Assembly (NCBI GenBank): GCA_046727015.1
Contig: JBKPBU010000339.1
Coordinates: forward strand, 1-48,544
DNA length: 48,544 nt
Direction of reading: 5' to 3'
From: Candidatus Methylomirabilota bacterium
Lineage (GTDB): Bacteria > Methylomirabilota > Methylomirabilia > Rokubacteriales > CSP1-6
A model generated the notes under the pieces. The model searched no databases. It was not told where the DNA came from and saw only the letters and a list, made by a program, of their open reading frames with translations. This document shows positions 2 to 48,544 of the stretch, piece by piece. The translations under genes were made by a program, and so were the position numbers. Positions within the stretch are counted from its first letter, which is position 1. Each line of letters opens with the position of its first letter.

Positions 2-898
2 GGCGCCCTCAAGCACGGCATGCAGCTACCGACGGTGCGGCAGCTCGCGGGCTTCCTCCGGATCAATCCGAACACGGTGGCCCGCGCCCTCGCCGACCTC
101 GAGCGAGACGGCTATGTGGAAGGGCAGCAGGGGCGCGGCACGTTCGTGGCCGACCGTCCCACGCGCGAGGGCCGAGCGGCGCGGAGCCTCGAGCGCTTGG
201 TCGGCGAAAGCCTCGAGCGAGTGCGCCGGCTCGGCTTCACCCAGGACGAATTCCTGGCGGCGCTGGCCTCGAGCGCGCCGGTCGACCGCGTGGGCAAGGT
301 CGCGCGCCGTCGGGCCGTGCTGGTCGAGTGCAACGACGCGGAGCTGGCGCGCTACCGGGACGAGCTCGAGGCGGAGCTCCCGCTCCACGTGGACCGCATG
401 CTGGTCCACGAGTTCGAGGCGAAGGCCGCCCGCGATCCCGGCTTCTTGAAGGGTTACCGGGCCGTGATCACGACCTTCTTCCACATCCATGAGGTCAGGC
501 GCGTGCTGCCGCCGGACGGTCCGCCCGCGGTCGCGCTGCTGGCCGAGGCCAGCATCAAGACGCTGCTGCGACTGACCGAGCTGCCCGAGGGATCGACCGT
601 CGGCCTCGTCTGCACCACGGCCACGGGCGGTCAGAACCTGCTTCGCTCCGTCCAGTCGGCGGGGCTCATGCACGTCACCCCGGTGCTCGCCTCCACGGAC
701 GACGCCTGGTCGCTGGACCGCATGCTCGAGAAGACCCGCACCGTCGTCTGCTCCGAGCAGGCCGCCGCGCGCATTCGCCACAGCCTGCCGAAGGACGTGG
801 AGCTGATCGTGGCCGACCGGACGCTCGACCGGGGCGGTATCGAGCTGCTGCGCGACCTCCTCAGCCAGCCCGACGGCGAGCCGGCGCACGGCGGCTGA
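2..898 (+). CDS. GntR-family transcriptional regulator, 5' end cut by window edge
   Basis: The frame is open from the window edge. LPTVRQLAGFLRINPNTVARALADLERDGYVEGQQGRGTFV is a GntR-type winged HTH, which normally sits 15-20 aa into the protein, so the true start is probably upstream of base 1. Stop is TGA at 896-898. Confidence 0.75.
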   Translation, partial: GALKHGMQLPTVRQLAGFLRINPNTVARALADLERDGYVEGQQGRGTFVADRPTREGRAARSLERLVGESLERVRRLGFTQDEFLAALASSAPVDRVGKVARRRAVLVECNDAELARYRDELEAELPLHVDRMLVHEFEAKAARDPGFLKGYRAVITTFFHIHEVRRVLPPDGPPAVALLAEASIKTLLRLTELPEGSTVGLVCTTATGGQNLLRSVQSAGLMHVTPVLASTDDAWSLDRMLEKTRTVVCSEQAAARIRHSLPKDVELIVADRTLDRGGIELLRDLLSQPDGEPAHGG

Positions 899-901
899 GG
901 C

Positions 902-1537
902 ATGACGCAGAGCCCGCCCGTCTGCGTCTTCGACCTCGACCACACGCTCGTCAGCTCGCCGCTCGACATGAAGGCGGTGGGGCGCGAGATGGAAGCCTTC
1001 GTGCGCGAGCGGGGTCTGCCCCTGCCGCGACGTGAGCTCCGCTGGTCGGGGCCCGAGCTGTTCGATTTCGTGCGGGCCCAAGCCGCGCATCTCGAAACGG
1101 AGATTCTCGCCATTCCCCAGGCCCACGAGCGACGCGCCATGGAGCAGGCCGTGCTCGAACCCTTCGCGATCGAGGCGCTTACCGCGATGAGAGATCTGGG
1201 CTTCGCCACCGCCATCTGGACCAACAACGACCGGGTGGTCGCCGACTTTGTCCTGGCCCGCTTCGACCTGCTCCGCCACCTGGACCTGGTCGTGACCCGC
1301 GACGACGTCACCGCGCTCAAGCCCGATCCCGACGGCCTCCGCGTGGTCCGCGAGCGCTGGCCCGAGGCGCCCCACATCGTCATGGTCGGCGACGCCTGGG
1401 TCGATGGACTCGCCGCCCAGGCGGGCGGCGTGCCCTTCATCGCCTACCGCGCGGACGCGGCCGAGCTCGAGCGCCGCGGCGTCGGCGTCGCGGCCCGCAT
1501 CAGCTCGCTCCTCGACCTCCCCGCCGCGCTCGCCTGA
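902..1537 (+). CDS. HAD-superfamily hydrolase (phosphatase-like, subfamily IA)
   Basis: DxDxT motif I (VFDLDHTLV), WTNN motif II, and LKPDPDG ... VGDAWVDG motifs III/IV. Confidence 0.7.
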   Translation: MTQSPPVCVFDLDHTLVSSPLDMKAVGREMEAFVRERGLPLPRRELRWSGPELFDFVRAQAAHLETEILAIPQAHERRAMEQAVLEPFAIEALTAMRDLGFATAIWTNNDRVVADFVLARFDLLRHLDLVVTRDDVTALKPDPDGLRVVRERWPEAPHIVMVGDAWVDGLAAQAGGVPFIAYRADAAELERRGVGVAARISSLLDLPAALA

Positions 1538-1543
1538 CCGCTT

Positions 1544-1566
1544 CCCTCTCCCCTCAGGGGAGAGGG
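1544..1566. repeat. Perfect 23-nt palindrome CCCTCTCCCCT-C-AGGGGAGAGGG
   Basis: 11-nt arms are exactly complementary around one central base. It lies directly after the HAD stop codon. The same palindrome recurs at 36376-36398 with the central base complemented. Confidence 0.85.
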
Positions 1567-1570
1567 GAGG

Positions 1571-2926
1571 GTGAGGGGTGGTTCCTACAGGTATAATCCC
1601 GCCGTGGATCTTTTCGATCCTCCGCCGTCCGCCACCCCGGCCGCTCCCGCCCCGCTCGCGGATCGCATCCGTCCGCGCACCCTCGACGAGGTCGTGGGCC
1701 AGCAGCACCTGATCGGTCCGGGCAAGGTCCTCCGCCGCGCGCTCGAGGAGGGGCAGCTCCACTCCATGATTCTCTGGGGGCCTCCTGGCACCGGCAAGAC
1801 GACGCTCGCCTTCCTCATGGCGCAGGTCGCGGGCGCGCGCTTCGTCCCCTTCTCGGCCGTGCTCGCGGGCGTCAAGGAAATCCGCCAGGTGGTGGCCGAG
1901 GCCCAGGCGGACCGCGCCCGGGGCGGCAAGCGCACCATCCTCTTCGTGGACGAGATCCACCGCTTCAACAAGGGCCAGCAGGACGCCTTCCTGCCCCACG
2001 TCGAAAAGGGCACGCTGACCCTCATCGGCGCCACCACGGAGAACCCGTCCTTCGAGGTCAACGCGGCGCTCCTGTCGCGCTGCCGCGTCTACACGCTCCA
2101 GCCGCTCTCCGAGGACGACCTCGTGGCCATCCTCGAGCGCGCGCTCCGCGATCCCGATCGCGGCCTCGGTGCCACCGGCGCCACCGCGGACACCGACTCG
2201 CTGCGGCTCATCGCGCGGCTGTCGGGAGGCGACGCGCGCGGCGCGCTCAACATCCTCGAGCTGGCCGTGACGCTGCACGGAGGGGCGGTGACGGAGGCCG
2301 CGATCCGCGACGCCGTTCAGAAGAAGACCCTCCTCTACGACAAGTCGGGCGAGGAGCACTACAACCTGATCTCGGCCCTCCACAAGTCGCTGCGCGACTC
2401 CGACCCGGACGGAGCGCTCTACTGGCTCGGCCGCATGCTGGAAGCCGGCGAGGACGCGCTCTACATCGCGCGGCGGCTCGTGCGCTTCGCCTCGGAGGAC
2501 GTGGGCAACGCGGACCCGCAGGCGCTGCGGGTGGCCCTCGACGCCAAGGAGTCCTATCACTTCCTGGGCTCGCCCGAGGGAGAGCTCGCGCTGGCCCAGG
2601 CGACCTGTTACCTGGCGCTCGCGCCGAAGTCCAACGCGGTCTACGCCGCGTGGAATCAGGTCAAGCAGGACATCCAGGACAAGCCCGCCGAGCCCGTGCC
2701 GCTCCACCTCCGCAATGCCCCGACCGGGCTCATGGCCAACCAGGGCTACGGCAAGGGCTATCAGTACGCGCATGACGCGGCAGAGGCGCGCGTGGACCAG
2801 GAGCACCTGCCCGACGCCCTGCGCGGCCGCGTCTACTACAGGCCCGTAGACCGCGGGCTCGAAAAGGAATTGGCGGCGCGCCTCGACGGATGGAGGAAGT
2901 GGCGGGAGCAACAGGGCAAGCGGTGA
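1571..2926 (+). CDS. rarA: Replication-associated recombination protein A (AAA+ ATPase RarA/MgsA)
   Basis: [22 protein letters not shown], Walker [10 protein letters not shown], and Walker [13 protein letters not shown]. An alternative in-frame GTG start at 1604 lies 6 nt after a TATAAT hexamer (1592-1597). Confidence 0.9.
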
Positions 2927-4155
2927 GCGACCGCGCCTGGCTCGCGGCCATCTGCGCCTCCGAGCTCGGCACGCTCCTGGTCTTCTCGAACTTCTCCGCA
3001 CTCCTGCCCCTCCTCCAGCGGGAGTGGGGACTCAGCAACAGCGAGGCGGGGCTGATCGTCTCGTTCTACCAGTTCGGCTATATCGGCGCGGTCATGATCC
3101 TCGCGACACTCACGGACTACATGCCGCCACGCCGCATCTACCTCGCGAGCGCGTTCTGGACGGCAGCCGCGAGCGTGGGCTTCGCCGGCTGGGCCGACGG
3201 TTTTCTCTCCGCGGTGCTCCTGCGCGGCGCCGTGGGCCTCGGCCTGGCCGGCACCTACATGCCGGGCATGCGCATGGTGGCGGAGCGGTTCGCCCATGGA
3301 GGCCGCGGCTTCGCGATGGGCTGCTATATCGGCACGTTCACGCTCGGCACCGCGGTGTCTCTCTTCGTCACCGGCTGGGCCAATGGCCTCTGGGGCTGGC
3401 GCTGGGCCTTCGCGCTGACGGCGGCTGGGCCATTCCTCGCTGGCGCGATCGGCTTCTTCGTCCTGCCCCGGGGAATGGCGGCCGTGCCCGGGGCGGCCGC
3501 GCCCGGCCCGAAGCAGGAGCGCCTCGGCCCGGTGCTGAAGAACCGCGCCGCCGTGCGCCTCATCACGGCCTACGGCGCGCACACGTTCGAGCTCATGGGC
3601 ATGCGCGGCTGGATCGTGCCCTTTTTCACCGCGAGCCTCGTCGCCTCCGGCGCGGTGCTCGCCGAGGCGAATCAACGCGCGGCGCTGGCCGCCTCGGCGG
3701 TGCTGGCCATCGGCGCCCTGCCCCACCCCTTCACCGGGCTCCTGTCCGACCGCTTCGGACGGGCGAAGCCGATCAGCGTGCTCATGCTGCTCTCGGCCTG
3801 CTGCTCTCTCGCCATCGGCTGGGGGCTTGGCTGGCCTTTCCCCGCACTCGTGGCCCTCGGCCTTCTCTACGGCGTCCTCATCACCTCCGAGTCGGCCATC
3901 GTCTCGACGGGCATCGCCGACGCGGCCGAGCCCGCCTATCTCGGCAGGACCATGGCGCTCCAGTCCACGGTGGGGTTCACGGCCGGCGCGCTCTCACCGT
4001 GGGCCGTCGGCTTGGTCCTCGACTGGGCGCCTCGATGGGGCGCCTCGGGCGGCGGCAAATGGATCTGGGGCTTCGGGCTCCTCGGCGTCGTCGCGCTCCT
4101 CGGCCCGCTCACGGTCGGCTTCAAGGAGTTCACGCGCAGGCCTCGGCAGGTTTAG
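2923..4155 (+). CDS. MFS transporter
   Basis: Multi-pass hydrophobic protein with MFS-like loops ([22 protein letters not shown]). Start moved to the GTG at 2923, which forms a GTGA overlap with the rarA stop. The track start at 2890 would overlap rarA by 37 nt. Confidence 0.72.
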
Positions 4156-40387: not shown

Positions 40388-41248
40388 TCAGTGCCCGGGC
40401 GCGTGGGCGAGCTCGGCAAACTCCGCGAGCGAAAGCGTCTCGGCCCGGCGGCCGGCATCGATGCCCGCGGCGGCGCACATCGCCCGCGCGCGCTCGGCCG
40501 AAAGGCCCAGGCCCGAGGCGAGGGAATTGGCGAGGCTCTTCCTGCGCTGGCCGAACGCCGCGAGGACGACCGCGCGCAGTCGCGCCGGATCGCCCACGGG
40601 CACCGGCGGCACCCGCCTCACGCGAAGGTGGACCACCGCGGAGTCCACCTGGGGAGGTGGGCGAAAGGCCCCGGGCGGGACCGTGAAGGCAAGCCGCGCC
40701 TCGCAGGAGAGCTGGGTCAGCACGGACAGGCTCCCGTAGGTCTTGCCCCCGGGACCAGCCGCGACGCGCTCGGCGACTTCCTTCTGGAGCATGAGCGCCA
40801 TCTCGTCGAGGACCGGCCCCGCCTCGACGAGGGCCTGGAGGATGGGCTTGCCCACGCTGTACGGGAGATTGCCCACGACGACGACGCGCCCGGTCGGGTG
40901 GGGCTTGAGGGCGGACAGCCCCGTGTAGTTAAAGGAGCGCGCGTCGGCCTGGAGGATCTCGACGTGGGGCGTATCCGCGAAGCGCTCGCAGAGCGCCGTG
41001 GCCATGACCTGGTCCACCTCGAGGGCGAGGAGCCGGCCGGCCGCGCGGGCGAGGCGGGCCGTCAGCGCTCCCAGCCCCGGCCCGATCTCGACCACGAGAT
41101 CCTGCTGCGTCGGCTGGACGAGGCCGACCATCCGCTCGGCCACGGCGTCGTCGCGGAGGAAGTGCTGGCCGAGCGCCCGCGTCTTTCCGGAGGCGGCATG
41201 ACGCTTGGGCCGCGGCGTCAGAGCCCGCGCGTTCCTGCGCGGGCTCAT
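40388..41248 (-). CDS. rsmA: 16S rRNA (adenine1518/1519-N6)-dimethyltransferase
   Basis: LGQHFLRDD, VVEIGPGLGALT, and VVGNLPYSV. ATGA overlap with the coaE stop. Confidence 0.88.
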   Translation of the reverse strand: MSPRRNARALTPRPKRHAASGKTRALGQHFLRDDAVAERMVGLVQPTQQDLVVEIGPGLGALTARLARAAGRLLALEVDQVMATALCERFADTPHVEILQADARSFNYTGLSALKPHPTGRVVVVGNLPYSVGKPILQALVEAGPVLDEMALMLQKEVAERVAAGPGGKTYGSLSVLTQLSCEARLAFTVPPGAFRPPPQVDSAVVHLRVRRVPPVPVGDPARLRAVVLAAFGQRRKSLANSLASGLGLSAERARAMCAAAGIDAGRRAETLSLAEFAELAHAPGH

Positions 41249-41874
41249 GCCCGGCGCCGCGCCGCCAGCTCGGCCAGGAGCGCGCGGTGGACCGCGCGCA
41301 CCTGGCGCTCCGTCTCCTCGCGCGTGCCCGAGTTGTCGATGACGTGATCCGCGAGCTTCGCTTTCTCGGCGATGGGCATCTGGCTCGCGATCCGCGCCCG
41401 GGCGTCGGCCTCGCGCAGGCCATCGCGCTCCATGAGCCTCCGGACCTCGATCTCGGGATCGGCGAAAACCACGACCACGCGGTCCATCTTGGCCACGCCG
41501 CCGGACTCGAAGAGGAGCGCCGCGTCCCAGAGGACGACGCCCTCGAAGCTCTCCTCGTCGAGGAGGGAGAGGATACGCTGCTGCCGCGCTCCGATGGCCG
41601 GGTGGGTGATCTCTTCTAGCCGCTTCCGCCTGGCCGGATCCGCGAAGACGATAGCCCCCAGGGCCTTGCGGTCCAGCGAGCCGTCGTCCTGGACGAGCTG
41701 GGAGCCGAACTCCTCGACGATCCGGGCATAGGCGGGCTGCCCGGGCATCACGACCTCCCGCGAGAGGAGATCGGCGTCGATGACGCGCGCGCCTTCGTGG
41801 GCGAACATCGCGCTCACGGTGCTCTTCCCGGTGGCGATGCTGCCGGTGAGGCCGACGAGGAGGAAGCGCCTCAC
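41245..41874 (-). CDS. coaE: Dephospho-CoA kinase
   Basis: LVGLTGSIATGKSTV P-loop at the N-terminus. GTGA overlap with the polA stop. Confidence 0.88.
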   Translation of the reverse strand: MRRFLLVGLTGSIATGKSTVSAMFAHEGARVIDADLLSREVVMPGQPAYARIVEEFGSQLVQDDGSLDRKALGAIVFADPARRKRLEEITHPAIGARQQRILSLLDEESFEGVVLWDAALLFESGGVAKMDRVVVVFADPEIEVRRLMERDGLREADARARIASQMPIAEKAKLADHVIDNSGTREETERQVRAVHRALLAELAARRRA

Positions 41875-44800
41875 GCCTGGGCCCAGTCGGCGCCCGTCTT
41901 GATGTCCACCTTGAGCGGGACGTCGAGCGACATCGCCGCCTCCATCACCTCACGGGCGAGAGCCTCGAGCCGCGGCACTTCGTCCTCGGGCGCCTCAAAG
42001 AGCAGCTCGTCGTGGACCTGGAGCAGCATGCGGCTCCTGAGGCCGCTCGCGGCGAGGGCAGCCGCCATGCGCACCATGGCGATCTTGGTCAGGTCGGCTG
42101 CCGTACCCTGGATCGGCGCATTGGTCGCCATGCGCTCGGCGAAGCCCCGGAGGTTCGGATTGCCGCTTCGGAGCTCAGGGATATAGCGACGCCTGCCGAA
42201 GAGAGTCTGGACGAAGCCCCGCTCCCGTCCCTCTGCGACCGTCCGCTCGAGGTACGCCTTGACCTTGGGATGGCGCTGGAAGAACCGGGTGAGGAATTCC
42301 TGCGCTTCTTTGGGCGTGATCGAGAGGCCGCGGGAGAGCCCGAAGGCCGTGACTCCGTAGATGACGGAGAAGTTGGTCGTCTTGGCCACGTCCCGCTGCT
42401 CCGAGGTGACTTTGTCCAGCTCGACGCCGAAGACTTCCGCCGCCGTGCGACGGTGGATGTCCTCCCCCGCGCGAAAGGCCGCGATGAGGCTTTCCTCGCC
42501 GGAGACGTGGGCAAGGATGCGAAGCTCGATCTGCGAGTAGTCAGCCGCGAGGAAGAGATGGCCCGGATCGGGCACGAAGGCGGCGCGGATGCGGCGGCCG
42601 AGCTCCGTGCGGATGGGGATGTTCTGGAGATTGGGACCAGAGGAATTGTGCACGACGATGCCGTCCGTAATGTACTGCTCCCCCTCCACCGCGATATCGT
42701 ACATGGGGACTGGCGGCTCCCACGCTACAGACCGCACGCGGATCTCGAAGTACTGTCCCGAGACCGCCTCTGACAGAAATGACGGCACCTTTTCACCGCT
42801 GCCCTCGAGCGCATTGATGATCCGCTCGGCCCGAGGCAGCGTGCACGTCACTCGTCCCGCGGCGTACTTATGCATGAAAACGTACAGCGCCTGGGGAACT
42901 TCCCCGTTTAGCCGTCGCTCGCTGTCGTACAGAGCCGCCTTGATGCCGAGGATCTCGTCGGATGTCGGGAGAGTCAGCACTTCAGCGCAGCTCTTGGCGC
43001 TCCGTCCGCCGATCAGCCGATCGAGCTGGGACCGTTTCTTGCTCGAGATGAAGCCGATCTGCTCCCGGAATCTCCATTTCGATCTATCGCCCAGAACAAT
43101 CAGGGTGTGTCGCGGTGCGTGCCCGCGAGGGTCCTCACCGCCGTTCGCAATGCTGGACGGAATTCCGAACATCGCGAGCAGATGATGAACGCCTTCCAGC
43201 ATGTCCCTCGATACTGACCGGACCGACAGAGTGTCGGAGGCCGTCCCGTCTCCCTCGAAGTATCCGCGGAGAAACGCGGCCACGATGTCCCGCGGCGCGA
43301 AGAATAGGCTCTGGGGTACCTGAATCACTTTGGAGGTGCCGCCGGCACCGAGCTGCTCGACCATGCCGCACACATCCATGCTCGACAGCTCCAAGACGGG
43401 ACAGGATCGGGCCTTTCGGTACGTCGGGCTCCTCCCGAACAATCTCTCCATGGCGCCGGCGAAGTGTCGAGCAACATCCTGCTCCGGCCAGTCGAATGAC
43501 AGGACAAGCTTCGCGGGCTTCCCGTTGTAATTACTGCGCGCGATATGGCCGTCGGCCATCGTGTATCCGACCATCTCCGCAAGGTCCGCAGACCATTCCG
43601 CCGGGAGCCCCGGAGTCTTGCGCGTGCGATAGGCCGCGGTTTGCTCCACGCGAAGCGCAGTGGAAGTGCCGAACAATCCCTCGGTAAAGCTCATGTACAG
43701 AGACACATCGGGCTTGAGGTCCGACGCTTCAACCCACCGGCCCGTTGTTCGGAGGCCATGGTCGGGACTGCAGCGGAGGATGATTCCCGTCGAGAGGGTG
43801 ATCGCCATCACTGGTTTCACACCGGTCATCTCCGCCGCCAGCACCCTCCGGGGGCCACGACAGGTCCGCACAAGATCCCCCACCTGGACAGTTTCGATGC
43901 CCACTAGCCCCCTTTGGGTATTTACCAGCGAGCCGGCGGGGAGGCAGGAAAGTCTTCCCGTTGCGGCGACGAGCTGATTGAAAGACGTGTGGATGCGTCC
44001 CGTCGCCGGATTGATCAAGGTGGGGAGCGAGTCGGCGTAAGTGGACTTGAGCTTGCTGAGCGTCCGGTGCTCGACGATCTTGGCCGGCAGCTCGTGGCCC
44101 AGCGCCAGCTGCTCCAGCACGTCGGCATCGGTCGAGTAGCCGGTCTTGGTCTTCTTCACGGGCGGGAGCTTCAGCTTCTCGAAGAGGATGCGCGCCATCT
44201 GCTTGGGCGAGCCGATGTTGAACTCCTCCCCCGCCAGGGCGTAAATGCTGCGCGTGATTTGCTCGAGCGACAGGTCGAGCTCCTTCGAGAATTCCGCGAG
44301 CCGAGCCGGATCTACCCGGATGCCGTGGCGCTCCATCTCTGACAGCACCGGCACGAGCGAACGTTCGACGTCTTCATAGAGGGCCAAGAGACCCACTTCC
44401 TTGAGCGCGCGCGGCAGCATCTCCCAAAGCTGCCAGACCCAGCGAGCGCGGCTGCCCGGCGCCGCCAGCCCCGGCCCTTCGCCCAGGAGCTCCGCGCACA
44501 CCTCGTCGAGCTTGTAGTTGGTCCGCGCGGGATTCAGGAGATAGGCGCCGAGCGCGGTGTCCTCGAGGGCGGGAGCGCTGCCGCCCCGCGCCGCCCACCA
44601 CTCGACGAGGTGCTTGACATCGTGGCCGATGAGCCGCCGGCCGCCGAAGTCGGGGAGCGAAGCGCCCAAGGGCAAGAGCGCGCGCTCCGCGGCCGGATGG
44701 TAGAGACCGAGGGCCGTCATGGACGGATCGGGAGAGGTGCCGTCCCCCACCCAGTCGACCGCGACGGGCGCGTCTGCGGGGACGGCCTCCAGCCATTGAC

Positions 44801-45719
44801 GGAGCGCCTCGGCGCCGTCGAGCACGGGCATGGGCTCTCCCGTCACCTGGACGGGCGCCGCGGCGGGGAGCTGGCGCAACAGGGTGTGGAACTCGAGCTC
44901 GGTCCAGAGCGTCCGGAGCCGCTCCCAGTCCGGCTCCTGACGCCTGAAAGCTTCGAGGTCCTGCTCGATCGGGACGCGCGTGCTCACGGTGGCCAGCTCC
45001 CGCGAGAGGAGCGCCTGCTGGCGATGGGCCGCGAGGATCTCGCGCGCTTTGCCCGTGACGAGCGTGAGATTGTCGTAGAGCCGCGCCACGCTGCCGAACT
45101 GCGAGATCAGCTTGACCGCGGTCTTCTCGCCGACGCCGGGCACGCCCGGAATATTGTCGATGCTGTCGCCCATGAGGGCCAGGAGGTCCGGGATGTGCTC
45201 CGGCCCCACTCCCCACTTCGCGGTGACGGCGGCCTCGTCGAACCATACGGGCTCACCCCGTACATTGGTCGCGAGCACCCGCACCTTCGGGCCGACCAGC
45301 TGGAGCATGTCCTTGTCGCCCGTGACCAGCACCATCTGGACCGGCTCCGCGCGCATCTTCTCGACGAGTGTGCCCATCACGTCGTCGGCCTCGAAGCCCG
45401 GCACCTCCAGGAGCGGGAGGCGCAGCGCCTCGAAGAGCGTCTTGACGTAGGGGATCTGGCTGCGGAGATCGTCGGGCGTCGCCGCACGCGTCTCCTTGTA
45501 GGACGGCAGCTTCTCCTCCCGGAAGGTGGGACCCGGCGGATCCCACGCCACCGCCACGTACTCCGGGTTCTCCTCGCGCAGGAGCTTCCAGAGCATCGTG
45601 GACATCCCGAAGATGGCATTCGTCAGCTGGCCCCTCGAGGTGCGGAAGTCGTACGGCAGCGCGTGGTAGGCGCGGTAGAGATAGCCCGGCGCGTCCACGA
45701 CGAAGAAGCGTGCGCTCAC
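41871..45719 (-). CDS. polA: DNA polymerase I, interrupted in frame by an intein
   Basis: 5'-nuclease N-terminus (GYLYRAYHALP, GFEADDV, GVPGVGEKTA). Polymerase motifs are ATGRLS / SSGPNLQNIP, DYSQIELR and QVHDELLFE. The protein is 1282 aa rather than about 850-930 aa because of the insert at 42645-43946. Confidence 0.93.
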   Translation of the reverse strand: MSARFFVVDAPGYLYRAYHALPYDFRTSRGQLTNAIFGMSTMLWKLLREENPEYVAVAWDPPGPTFREEKLPSYKETRAATPDDLRSQIPYVKTLFEALRLPLLEVPGFEADDVMGTLVEKMRAEPVQMVLVTGDKDMLQLVGPKVRVLATNVRGEPVWFDEAAVTAKWGVGPEHIPDLLALMGDSIDNIPGVPGVGEKTAVKLISQFGSVARLYDNLTLVTGKAREILAAHRQQALLSRELATVSTRVPIEQDLEAFRRQEPDWERLRTLWTELEFHTLLRQLPAAAPVQVTGEPMPVLDGAEALRQWLEAVPADAPVAVDWVGDGTSPDPSMTALGLYHPAAERALLPLGASLPDFGGRRLIGHDVKHLVEWWAARGGSAPALEDTALGAYLLNPARTNYKLDEVCAELLGEGPGLAAPGSRARWVWQLWEMLPRALKEVGLLALYEDVERSLVPVLSEMERHGIRVDPARLAEFSKELDLSLEQITRSIYALAGEEFNIGSPKQMARILFEKLKLPPVKKTKTGYSTDADVLEQLALGHELPAKIVEHRTLSKLKSTYADSLPTLINPATGRIHTSFNQLVAATGRLSCLPAGSLVNTQRGLVGIETVQVGDLVRTCRGPRRVLAAEMTGVKPVMAITLSTGIILRCSPDHGLRTTGRWVEASDLKPDVSLYMSFTEGLFGTSTALRVEQTAAYRTRKTPGLPAEWSADLAEMVGYTMADGHIARSNYNGKPAKLVLSFDWPEQDVARHFAGAMERLFGRSPTYRKARSCPVLELSSMDVCGMVEQLGAGGTSKVIQVPQSLFFAPRDIVAAFLRGYFEGDGTASDTLSVRSVSRDMLEGVHHLLAMFGIPSSIANGGEDPRGHAPRHTLIVLGDRSKWRFREQIGFISSKKRSQLDRLIGGRSAKSCAEVLTLPTSDEILGIKAALYDSERRLNGEVPQALYVFMHKYAAGRVTCTLPRAERIINALEGSGEKVPSFLSEAVSGQYFEIRVRSVAWEPPVPMYDIAVEGEQYITDGIVVHNSSGPNLQNIPIRTELGRRIRAAFVPDPGHLFLAADYSQIELRILAHVSGEESLIAAFRAGEDIHRRTAAEVFGVELDKVTSEQRDVAKTTNFSVIYGVTAFGLSRGLSITPKEAQEFLTRFFQRHPKVKAYLERTVAEGRERGFVQTLFGRRRYIPELRSGNPNLRGFAERMATNAPIQGTAADLTKIAMVRMAAALAASGLRSRMLLQVHDELLFEAPEDEVPRLEALAREVMEAAMSLDVPLKVDIKTGADWAQA
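42645..43946 (-). mobile_element. Intein with LAGLIDADG homing-endonuclease domain inside polA (434 codons)
   Basis: Begins with Cys (CLPAGSLVNT) directly after ATGRLS and ends VVHN directly before SSGPNLQNIP. Internal SPDH (block-B-like), LAEMVGYTMADGHI and VAAFLRGYFEGDGT (two LAGLIDADG motifs). Removing it restores ATGRLSSSGPNLQNIP. Codons are visibly more A/T-rich than the flanking polA sequence. Confidence 0.87.
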
Positions 45720-48544
45720 GCCGGCACCACACGGTCGTAGAGCGCGCGCACCCAGGCGGTGCGCCGCTTGTACGCCTCGAGGAACTCCTTGCGCGACGGG
45801 TACTCGAGGCTCTTGGCCAGGCGTGCGGGTATGGGGCCCGCCGGCTCCAGCGTGTCGGCGGGCCGCGCGCCGAAGAGCCGCAGGTCCGCCGACACTCGGC
45901 GGAGGAAACGGTAGTGCTCCGCGAGCGTCTCCGCGTCGTCGGGCGGCAGGAGGCCGGCCCTGCCGATGTGGCCGAGCGCGGTCACGGTATGGGGGCTCGT
46001 GATGGCCGGATGCCGCCTCCCGTGCGTCATCTGGATGGCCTGGGCGATGAACTCCACGTCCACCAGCCCCCCGCGACCGAACTTGACGTGGAGCCGTCCC
46101 GGCGTCTCCTTGCCGAGCTCCTTTTCCATCCGGCCGCGCAGCTCGCGCATCTCCTTGAGGTCGGGCGGCGGTGCATCCGGCCCATGGACGAGGGCGCGGA
46201 TCTCCCGCCTCACCGCGCGACCGAGCCGGCCGTCACCGCCCACGAGCCGTGCGCGGGTGAGAGTCTGGCGCTCCCACGGGTCCGCCCACTCGCGGTAGTA
46301 CTGGCCGAGCGCCTCGACACTGGACGCGAAGCCGCTGCCCTTGGAGCCTGGGCGGAGACGGAGGTCCACGGGCACGACGACGCCGGCCGCCGTCACGTCA
46401 CCCAGGATCGACGAGAGCGCCTCCACGGCCCGATCGTAGAACACATGAGCCTCGACCCGCTCGGATCCGTCCGTCTCCCCTGCCCCGCCATACACGACGA
46501 AAAGATCGAGGTCGGAGCCCGTCGACAGCTCGCGCCCGCCGAACTTGCCCAGGCCGATGATGCACGCGGGGATCAAACGGCCCGCGGCGTCCCGCGGCAC
46601 GCCGAAGGCCTCGGCCGTCTCGCCGAGGGCCATCAGCCACCCGGCTCCCAGCGCCGCCTCGGCGAGCGCCGTCATCTCGCGCGAGAAGCTCTCGGCATCC
46701 GTGACGCCCAGGAGCATCCTCCAGGTGATCCCGAGCTCCTCGGCCTGCTTGAGCCGGCGCAGCCGGTCCATCCGCTCGGGCAGCATGAGCCGCGGTCCCA
46801 GCGCCGGCGCCAAGGCCCGTCTGAACTCGGCGCGGCGGCGAGGAGCCGCGAAGGTCACCGGGTCAGCAAGGCCCGTCAGCAGCTCCGGCTGAGTCAGCAG
46901 GAGCTGAGTCAGGAGCTCGCCCCGGGCGCAGAGCTTGACCAGATTGGCGAGGAGGTCCGGGTGCCCGGCCAGCAGCTCGAGGTAGGCCGTGCGCGGGCCG
47001 GTGGCGGCCACGAAGCGCTCGAACTGGTTGAGCGCCTCGTCGGGGTCGGGGCTCTGCCAGAGCGCGTCGAGCAGCACGGGGAAGATCGCGTGGAGCGCGC
47101 GGCGCAGCGGCTCGGCGTACGGGACGAGCGGCCGTCCCTCGAGGACCAGTCGCAGGTTCTCGCGGGCGCGGTCGGGGTCGGCGAAGCCGGTCGCCTTGAG
47201 CGCGGTGTAGGTCGGGATGCGGGGCGCGGGCGCCCGCGCCTTGGGCGGGGCGGCGAAGAAATCGCTGAAAGCCCCGTGCACGCCGCGAGTCACGCGGCGG
47301 TATTCGGCCTCGAAGCCGCGCCGCGCGGCGACGGGCACCGCGGTGCTCCCGAGCCGGCGGGCGAGGCGCGCGAGGGCAGCCGGCTCCTCGGGCAGCGTGT
47401 GGGTCTGGAACTCGTCGACGATCTGGAGGCGGTGCTCGACCGTTCTCAGGAAGCGAAGCGCCTCGCCGAGGAAGCGCCCGAGCGACTGCGGCAGGTAGCC
47501 GCGCTCGGTCAGGCGGAAGATGGCGCGCAGGCTGTTCCGCTCGCGGAGCCACGGATCGTCCCCCGAGTAGAGGAGCTGGAGTGCCTGGACCAGGAACTCG
47601 ACCTCGCGGATGCCGCCCACGCCCAGCTTGACGTGGCGCCGCTGGACGCCCTTGGCGCGAAGGGACTTGTCGATCTGCGCCTTCATGCCGCGCACCTCGG
47701 CGACGATCTCGGGATCGAGCCCGGGGCGGAATACGAAGGGGCGGACGAGGTCGAAGAAGCGCGCGGCCACGCCCGGGTCGCCCGCGCAGAAGCGTGCCTT
47801 GATCAGCGCCTGCCGCTCCCACAGCTCCGCCCGCTCCTCGAGGTACCCGCGGTAACCGTCGAGCGAGAGGATGACGCCACCTGACCGCCCCTCGGGACGG
47901 AGGCGCAGGTCCACGCGGAAGGCATAGCCCTCGTCGGTTACGGACTCGAGCGCTTCCACGATGGCCCTCGCGCCGCGGGCGAAGTAGTCGCCGTTCGGCA
48001 CGCGCCCCTCGGAGCCGCCCGTGGTCAGGCCGTCGTCGCCGTACACGAAGATGAGGTCGATGTCGGAGGAGTAGTTCAGCTCGTCGCCGCCAAGCTTGCC
48101 CATGCCGATCACGGCGAGGCCGGTGGGGGTCCCGTCCTCCGCCCGCGGCTCCCCGTACCGTCGCCGCAGGTCCTCCTCGGCCAGGCGCCACGCCGCCCCG
48201 AGGCAGACATCGGCCAGCCGCGAGAGCTCTTCGGTGGTGACGGTGAGGTCGGCGTCGCCCAGGATGTCGCGACACCCGATGCGGAGAAGCTGGCGGTACT
48301 TGAAGCGGCGGAGCGCGTTCCAGCGCGCTTCGGGACGGTCGAAGGCTCGAACGCTCTGCTCGAGCTCGGTCTCGAGCTCGTCGGCGAGCCACTGCCGCAT
48401 GGTGTCGGGCTCGAGGAGCCACAGCAGCAGCGTGGGCCGGCGTCTCAGCGTGTCGGCCAGGAACTGGCTCGTGCCCCCGAGCTTCGCCAGGAGGTGGAGC
48501 GCGCCCGGGTGAGTCTCCAGCAGCCGGAACAAGGCGGCGCGCTC
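45716..48544 (-). CDS. glnE: Bifunctional glutamine-synthetase adenylyltransferase/adenylyl-removing enzyme, 5' end beyond window
   Basis: Two nucleotidyltransferase modules (GMGKLGGDELNYSSDIDLIFVY and GLGKFGGRELSTGSDLDLFVVY). The frame stays open to the window edge upstream of the track's TTG start at 48532. Confidence 0.9.
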   Translation of the reverse strand, partial: ERAALFRLLETHPGALHLLAKLGGTSQFLADTLRRRPTLLLWLLEPDTMRQWLADELETELEQSVRAFDRPEARWNALRRFKYRQLLRIGCRDILGDADLTVTTEELSRLADVCLGAAWRLAEEDLRRRYGEPRAEDGTPTGLAVIGMGKLGGDELNYSSDIDLIFVYGDDGLTTGGSEGRVPNGDYFARGARAIVEALESVTDEGYAFRVDLRLRPEGRSGGVILSLDGYRGYLEERAELWERQALIKARFCAGDPGVAARFFDLVRPFVFRPGLDPEIVAEVRGMKAQIDKSLRAKGVQRRHVKLGVGGIREVEFLVQALQLLYSGDDPWLRERNSLRAIFRLTERGYLPQSLGRFLGEALRFLRTVEHRLQIVDEFQTHTLPEEPAALARLARRLGSTAVPVAARRGFEAEYRRVTRGVHGAFSDFFAAPPKARAPAPRIPTYTALKATGFADPDRARENLRLVLEGRPLVPYAEPLRRALHAIFPVLLDALWQSPDPDEALNQFERFVAATGPRTAYLELLAGHPDLLANLVKLCARGELLTQLLLTQPELLTGLADPVTFAAPRRRAEFRRALAPALGPRLMLPERMDRLRRLKQAEELGITWRMLLGVTDAESFSREMTALAEAALGAGWLMALGETAEAFGVPRDAAGRLIPACIIGLGKFGGRELSTGSDLDLFVVYGGAGETDGSERVEAHVFYDRAVEALSSILGDVTAAGVVVPVDLRLRPGSKGSGFASSVEALGQYYREWADPWERQTLTRARLVGGDGRLGRAVRREIRALVHGPDAPPPDLKEMRELRGRMEKELGKETPGRLHVKFGRGGLVDVEFIAQAIQMTHGRRHPAITSPHTVTALGHIGRAGLLPPDDAETLAEHYRFLRRVSADLRLFGARPADTLEPAGPIPARLAKSLEYPSRKEFLEAYKRRTAWVRALYDRVVPA

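Follow-up and report, generated by a model that had tools for sequence, protein, structure and literature searches.

The analyzed stretch of DNA, referred to as the window, comprises 48,544 nucleotides of contig JBKPBU010000339.1 from a Candidatus Methylomirabilota bacterium (assembly GCA_046727015.1), a fragmented metagenome-assembled genome (MAG) of 527 contigs that is 74% complete. Its minus strand carries polA, the gene for DNA polymerase I (Pol I), at 41871..45719. This open reading frame (ORF) encodes a precursor of 1282 amino acids, in which profile matches (PF02739, PF01367 and PF00476; NF004397 with 972 bits) delineate a 5'-3' exonuclease, a Taq-like middle region and an interrupted family-A polymerase domain. 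The interruption consists of 434 in-frame codons at 42645..43946 (polA residues 592-1025); these are exactly the coordinates given in an initial annotation of this DNA, which had proposed a LAGLIDADG intein. The insert can be regarded with high confidence as a class-1 intein with a Hint fold and a double-motif LAGLIDADG homing endonuclease, placed between the equivalents of Ser670 and Ser671 of E. coli Pol I.

The borders of the element are sharp. The N-extein (43947..45719, minus strand; residues 1-591) ends in ...FNQLVAATGRLS and aligns without gaps to Klenow chains. The C-extein (41871..42644, minus strand; residues 1026-1282 and the stop codon) starts with SSGPNLQNIP and contains motifs A (DYSQIELR), B and C (QVHDE). 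The N-extein residues ATGRLS (586-591) are followed by CLPAGS, whose Cys592 is the first residue of the insert (Cys1 of the intein), and the insert closes with GIVVHN, the terminal His433-Asn434 pair ending at residue 1025 just before the Ser at +1. The Pol I profiles NF004397, TIGR00593 and PF00476 (DNA_pol_A) each match in two pieces, with breaks exactly at 592/1026.

All parts of the intein are encoded on the minus strand. The N-terminal splicing (Hint) half covers intein residues 1-95 (43662..43946) and includes block A with Cys1 and block B, RCSPDH; it is recognized by invariant alignment columns, by the beta-strand pattern of the structural model and by a match to gp41-1. The LAGLIDADG homing-endonuclease domain occupies residues from about 96 to 320 (42987..43661), as indicated by PF14528, by I-DmoI structures and by its dN/dS (given below). 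Its first motif, LAEMVGYTMADGHI (43542..43583), contains LAEMVGYTMADG with the invariant pair Asp132-Gly133, and is modeled as a helix (120-132) followed by a strand. The second, AAFLRGYFEGDGT (43242..43280), contains AAFLRGYFEGDG with the invariant Glu231-Gly-Asp233-Gly, at the end of a modeled helix (219-233). Asp132 and Asp233 are the putative metal-binding/catalytic residues of the endonuclease, with metal binding being the role suggested for Asp132. A helical accessory region (residues 321-398, 42753..42986; model helices 302-397) separates the endonuclease core from the C-terminal splicing strands. No other part varies as much across the family, with gaps and low conservation at alignment columns of about 310-410, and the region may serve in DNA binding. 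The C-terminal splicing half (residues 399-434, 42645..42752) holds block F (VPMYDIAVEG) and block G (GIVVHN) with the invariant His433-Asn434, and is the part matched by TIGR01443. The motifs named in the initial annotation were all located within the insert: SPDH at intein residues 60-63, GYTMADGHI at 127-135, LRGYFEGDGT at 226-235 and YDIAVEG...GIVVHN at 416-434, together with the initial Cys and the terminal His-Asn.

Two alignments of homologues (23 and 18 sequences, 47-91% identity) show a strict conservation of the key residues. Cys1 is present in 23/23 and 18/18 sequences, and Cys59-Ser60-x-x-His63, Asp132-Gly133, Glu231-Gly-Asp233-Gly and His433-Asn434 are likewise invariant in both alignments. 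Cys182 is, like Cys59, found in every aligned homologue. The block B motif reads S60-P-D-H63, in which Ser takes the position of the Thr typical of T-x-x-H. The residue at +1 is Ser in every close same-site homologue, and Cys in one distant copy (P0078, 30% identity). The window intein retains the full class-1 residue set and both acidic residues of the endonuclease.

The profile search suggested in the initial annotation gave a clear result for the endonuclease and a faint one for the splicing domains. Pfam LAGLIDADG_3 (PF14528) matches the insert with 58.7 bits at a cut-off of 22.5, and the intein-containing parts of several equivalog models for archaeal and bacterial intein-bearing proteins (aIF2, RpoA'', RFC, GyrA_w_intein, DP2 and DnaB) match it as well. 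Counting against an intein, Intein_splicing (PF14890) reaches 27.4 bits, below its cut-off of 35.8, Hint_2 (PF13403) reaches 19.5 bits, below 28.4, and the N-terminal splicing model TIGR01445 has no match in the insert. The C-terminal model TIGR01443 (intein_Cterm) scores 15.6-15.9 bits, i.e., at its cut-off of 15.6. The scores of the splicing-domain profiles are thus weak, lying between a clear match and the outright failure that the initial annotation would have taken as a refutation, and structure prediction was therefore used.

An AlphaFold2 model of the intein, built from an 18-sequence alignment of the window intein and same-site inteins translated from their loci, has a mean predicted local distance difference test score (pLDDT) of 90.4 and a predicted template modeling score (pTM) of 0.90. 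In a Foldseek search of the PDB, the top 15 matches are all intein-homing endonucleases. The best is the TliVMA intein (7qss; E 5e-24, template modeling (TM) score 0.70), and PI-PfuI (1dq3), PhoVMA (7qst), PI-PkoII (2cw7) and PI-SceI are also found. The next match, to the central domain, is the free-standing LAGLIDADG enzyme I-DmoI (target TM 0.73-0.81), and the gp41-1 mini-intein (6qaz) matches the N-terminal strands (intein residues 6-85). A PDB sequence search with the intein gave weak matches alone (E 9e-5 to 4e-3). The predicted fold is that of a Hint domain split by a double-motif LAGLIDADG endonuclease.

Intein-free polA genes are present in five other genomes of the same genus. Their uninterrupted sites read TGRLSSS[A/Q/S]PNLQNIP, and the proteins are 85-89% identical to the spliced query. 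These empty sites remove the reading of the segment as a conserved, non-excised domain, which, if seen in close relatives, would have refuted the intein according to the initial annotation. Occupied sites are widespread. In a collection of 5.8 billion proteins, the intein part of the protein, used as query, retrieved about 70 PolA clusters with a homologous intein, from 91% down to 46% identity, and a regular expression for the identical insertion point, TGR[LIF]S|C...HN|S..PN.Q, is matched by about 60 of these clusters. Apart from Methylomirabilota, the hosts are MAGs that bear the labels of roughly eight phyla (Acetothermia, Fraserbacteria, Chloroflexota, Acidobacteriota, Rhodothermota, Bacteroidota, Saccharibacteria and Patescibacteria). 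When one genome per species was screened, this allele turned up in MAGs labeled as Methylomirabilota/Rokubacteria, Acetothermia, Fraserbacteria, Anaerolineae, Chloroflexales (Oscillochloris, Roseiflexaceae), Acidobacteriota including Pyrinomonadaceae, Rhodothermales/Rubrivirga, Bacteroidota and Saccharibacteria. The in-frame arrangement recurs in 18 named genome records, and no cultured organism is among the named matches. Within the phylum, 201 sampled Methylomirabilota genomes contain about nine intact copies, one frameshifted copy and one 5'-truncated remnant; this is a sample, and in incomplete genomes absence is not proof of absence.

The splicing-domain profiles at or below their thresholds, as well as the fragmentation of the MAG, could be taken to mean that the insert is no intein at all, but a permanent Pol I domain of this lineage or an assembly artefact. 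This is hardly conceivable, as the same arrangement occurs in about 60 independently assembled clusters and in the named genome records, the splicing residues are all invariant, the fold matches solved inteins and empty sites exist in the same genus. The conserved residues, the PF14528 match, the predicted fold, the gapless alignment of the host protein and the empty sites agree on the LAGLIDADG intein that had been proposed.

The position of the intein in Pol I can be defined precisely. Once the insert is removed, the flanks join as ...QLVAATGRLSSSGPNLQNIPIR..., and the product aligns across the junction without any gap to the Klenow fragment (E 8e-112) and to the Taq and Bst polymerases, so that excision does restore the family-A polymerase motif, as had been claimed. 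The predicted spliced Pol I has 848 amino acids, with the S-S junction peptide TGRLSSSGPNLQ. In numbering carried over from the Klenow alignment, the junction lies between E. coli Ser670 and Ser671, in the Pol I 'motif 2'. The Arg of the N-extein end corresponds to E. coli Pol I Arg668, and the intein is inserted two residues further on. As a check of consistency, the Asp of motif A maps to D705; both this and the R668 assignment fit the Pol I numbering. Most inteins are placed in conserved catalytic-site motifs of replication/repair-type proteins, as is the case here, and Arg668 of family-A polymerases contacts the primer terminus. The unspliced precursor should be inactive as a polymerase, because 434 residues are inserted two positions after the equivalent of this residue. 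In a PF00476 search of its own genome, both halves of polA were the sole matches, and polA was thus found to be the single family-A polymerase detected at 74% completeness. As only one such polymerase was detected, Pol I function presumably depends on splicing.

The intein very probably splices, judging by its conserved residues, from which the following steps are also deduced. The polA gene would be translated as the 1282-amino-acid precursor, in which Cys1 would form a thioester by an N-S acyl shift, aided by Ser60 and His63 of block B. The N-extein would then be moved onto the side chain of Ser+1. Cyclization of Asn434, aided by His433, would free the intein, and an O-N shift would restore a normal peptide bond (...TGRLS-SSGPNLQ...), giving the Pol I of 848 amino acids. 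The homing steps are predicted as well. The freed intein or the precursor would cleave polA alleles that lack the intein, at the strongly conserved coding sequence of TGRLSSS.PNLQ, and repair templated by an intein-bearing copy would insert the element into the cut allele.

A precursor that should be inactive, with an insertion two residues from the Arg668 equivalent, also invites the idea that the element now serves its host as a conditional switch. Splicing, and with it Pol I maturation, would then be gated by redox or another signal, for example through pairing of Cys59 or Cys182 with Cys1. Both Cys59 and Cys182 are invariant in all aligned homologues, and redox-gated inteins are documented for other hosts (review PMC5874633). 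If this were true, Pol I activity would be conditional on redox or other stress in soil bacteria. A disulfide is, however, purely hypothetical here, the invariant cysteines may be structural, and the intein-free sister genomes show that the host does not need the element. Such a switch is therefore considered quite improbable.

Evidence for mobility of the intein comes from a comparison of the element with its host gene. In a tree of the exteins of 22 Methylomirabilota alleles, mostly from the genus of the window, intein-plus and intein-minus alleles are interleaved. Presence and absence require four parsimony changes on this tree, at least three of which are forced by well-supported branches. 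The intein-free G200 is sister to the intein-bearing G073, with a Shimodaira-Hasegawa-like approximate likelihood ratio (SH-aLRT) support of 100, and the intein-free G030 and G190 fall in a group with the intein-bearing G032 that has a support of 99. Synonymous divergence (dS) provides a second line of evidence. Relative to P0004, the exteins of the window polA have a dS of 0.30-0.46 and the intein 0.69; relative to P0001, the exteins have 0.56-0.74 and the intein 0.33. Third-position identities of intein and exteins also differ in opposite directions for these two relatives (Fisher p = 2.5e-6 and 6e-8). The closest relative changes near polA residues 540-600, at the N-terminal intein border, with the N-extein nearest to one relative and the intein nearest to another. 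The window polA is a mosaic, in which the history of the intein differs from that of the host gene.

The intein as a whole has a dN/dS of 0.15-0.16 and its endonuclease domain one of 0.17-0.21, consistent with purifying selection on both. Between phyla, the intein is more similar than its host protein: the Patescibacteria copy P0057 shares 52.7% identity with the window intein but 40-43% with its exteins, and for P0065 the values are 47.8% and 33-35%. Inter-phylum branches measure 0.14-0.35 in the intein tree and 0.54-0.88 in the extein tree; the tip branches of the intein tree are longer, however. Because of the interleaved distribution, the mosaic divergence, the low dN/dS and the similarity of inteins across phyla, the data suggest that homing is still going on or was until recently, in addition to older transfers between phyla. 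The intein has probably been mobile in recent times.

Several observations pull the other way. The inteins still group by host phylum, and their tree largely follows the host tree, also within Methylomirabilota, where the approximately unbiased (AU) test leaves the host grouping unrejected (p = 0.45). Vertical inheritance combined with losses could therefore account for much of the distribution. As every sequence stems from a metagenome assembly, chimeric contigs might also produce an apparent mosaic, and the scans of phages and viral contigs described below identified no vector for a spread across phyla. The clustering by host phylum and the AU result, as well as broken copies in relatives (G027, G185 and P0071), would also suit a splicing-competent intein that is no longer homing. 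Its endonuclease would be dead, and the element would persist vertically since precise loss is rare and imprecise loss destroys an important gene. This alternative is rather unlikely, given that neither the two catalytic Asp residues nor the motifs around them vary across phyla, that the endonuclease domain has a dN/dS of about 0.2, that the intein is more diverged than the host gene at synonymous sites with respect to one relative and less diverged with respect to another, and that presence and absence are interleaved within one genus. A homing intein with recent mobility is the preferred explanation. Quick trees had suggested a deep incongruence between intein and host for one Methylomirabilota sub-clade; in view of the AU test, no transfer is claimed at that depth.

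A search of 50,697 phage records of INPHARED (tblastn) yielded distant inteins alone, at no more than 30% identity and in other genes. In a pattern-limited scan of IMG/VR viral contigs, relatives at 21-28% identity alone were found. With no close relative in either collection, a phage origin or vector for the intein is unsupported.

The base composition of the intein differs from that of its surroundings. The GC content is 62.1% for the intein and 67.8% for the exteins, and at third codon positions (GC3) the intein reaches 75.6%, compared with 88.9% for the exteins and 91-93% for the neighboring genes (chi-square p = 8e-10). With amino-acid content taken into account, the intein has 311 codons ending in G or C, where 368.5 would be expected from extein usage. 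The more A/T-rich codons noted in the initial annotation are thus real, but by themselves they are no evidence of recent arrival. The intein is less GC-rich than its own exteins in 17/18 hosts, with host GC contents from 49% to 72%. As the shift is a family-wide property whatever the GC content of the host, it does not date the arrival of the element, and low GC was rejected as a stand-alone proof of recent arrival. The case for mobility is better made by the mosaic divergence and the interleaved presence and absence.

Some relatives contain decaying copies of the PolA intein (G027, at L011/L038; G185, at L012; P0069; P0071). One is frameshifted with three stops, and in two others a deletion or frameshift affects the N-terminal intein half; the G027 copy is the frameshifted one, and those of G185 and P0071 are 5'-truncated. 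A polA with a broken N-terminal intein half should be splicing-incompetent, and these copies could be genuine pseudogenes or assembly errors. Two further records carry a polA identical to those of G123 and G186, which the genome collection places in the family of the window. These are L021 (DATHSW010000221.1), labeled 'Candidatus Deferrimicrobiaceae', and L026 (DASRWT010000041.1), labeled as the archaeon 'Candidatus Nitrosocosmicus'. Either these soil MAGs seem to be mislabeled at NCBI, or their bins are contaminated.

In the window, polA overlaps both of its neighbors by 4 nucleotides (41871-41874 and 45716-45719). Upstream lies a glnE-like ORF (45716..48532) and downstream coaE (41245..41874), and the gene order glnE-polA-coaE-rsmA-rnj is kept in relatives (L066, L067). 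In the middle region of PolA (residues of about 290-480, window 44300-45000), Pfam does not detect the 3'-5' exonuclease domain PF01612, as in Taq polymerase. Unlike the PolA of the window, the intein-bearing PolA of several other phyla does have this domain.

A second intein was found in the same genome, in a B12-dependent (class II-like) ribonucleotide reductase (RNR) encoded on contig C230 (L002, ORF 310..3594, plus strand). It interrupts the active-site motif as ATNP|C...HQ|CGEQPL, and so ends in His-Gln, not His-Asn, with Cys at +1. Over the endonuclease region, it shares 29% identity with the PolA intein. A different kind of relative is P0066 (L068:6001-8751, 916 amino acids, on 13 contigs), a free-standing protein of two tandem units that resemble the PolA intein (34% identity) and lack polymerase exteins. 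Its units have lost Cys1 and the His-Asn end (..VVND and ..VVTR), and the acidic LAGLIDADG residues are degenerate. The gene adjoins others with RE_endonuc, HATPase_c_3, SLFN_AlbA_2 and ParA-like domains, surroundings that look like a defense-island neighborhood. As judged from these features, P0066 may be a domesticated derivative of an intein. In some Acidobacteriota, PolA itself contains two inteins. The proteins P0046, P0055 and L028 (1777-1836 amino acids) combine the same-site intein with an unrelated downstream one, inserted as NxPIQG|CLPY...SKN|TASD just before motif C.

The finding leaves the understanding of the intein mechanism unchanged, and what it chiefly contributes is evidence, at the population level, that the element is being gained, lost and recombined in a soil phylum without cultured members. 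Within one genus of this phylum, a well-supported intein allele is polymorphic and shows a recombination signature at the intein borders, which makes it useful for the study of the homing cycle and of gene flow in uncultured bacteria. The endonuclease is predicted to recognize the near-universal coding sequence of Pol I motif 2, and, together with this endonuclease, a Cys1/Ser+1 intein from a mesophilic, GC-rich host could interest protein engineers. The polA of these genomes should carry the annotation of an intein-containing precursor. In public records of such genes, at least one is named 'hypothetical protein' and the others shown are named 'DNA polymerase', with no mention of the intein.

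Pol I is not new as a host protein of inteins, and many public metagenomic genomes, most of them unannotated, carry an intein at this site. Novikova et al. (2016, PMC4760082) count bacterial DNA polymerase I among the intein hosts, as does a table of PMC5874633, and the Pol I inteins listed there share the host protein and the element class with the one described here. The text of these two papers gives no insertion site or species for Pol I, and the main text does not tell whether S670/S671 was counted. In a full-text literature search, no paper was found that names a PolA intein site or that links inteins with Rokubacteria, Methylomirabilota or Acetothermia. The S670/S671 site might represent a never-catalogued allele that is currently mobile and spread over MAGs labeled as roughly nine phyla.

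Among solved structures, the closest counterparts are the archaeal and yeast intein-endonucleases TliVMA (7qss), PI-PfuI (1dq3), PhoVMA (7qst), PI-PkoII (2cw7) and PI-SceI (1vde, 1lws). Their architecture is alike, with a Hint domain split by a double-motif LAGLIDADG endonuclease and an accessory region, and Cys1 and the terminal His-Asn are common to both (Foldseek E 5e-24 to 1e-10, TM up to 0.70). In contrast, the sequence identity is only 12-19%, their hosts are V-ATPase, RNR and PolB in another domain of life, and the accessory region of the window intein is all-helical, with about 78 residues, unlike theirs. Much nearer are the same-site PolA inteins of public MAGs (Acidobacteriota/Pyrinomonadaceae, Acetothermia, Chloroflexota, Rhodothermota, Saccharibacteria and others), which have an identical insertion point, 47-65% identity and the same invariant residues. 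The window copy differs from these inteins of other phyla in belonging to the Methylomirabilota sub-clade, and its PolA lacks the second intein at PIQG|C...N|TASD that some Acidobacteriota carry.

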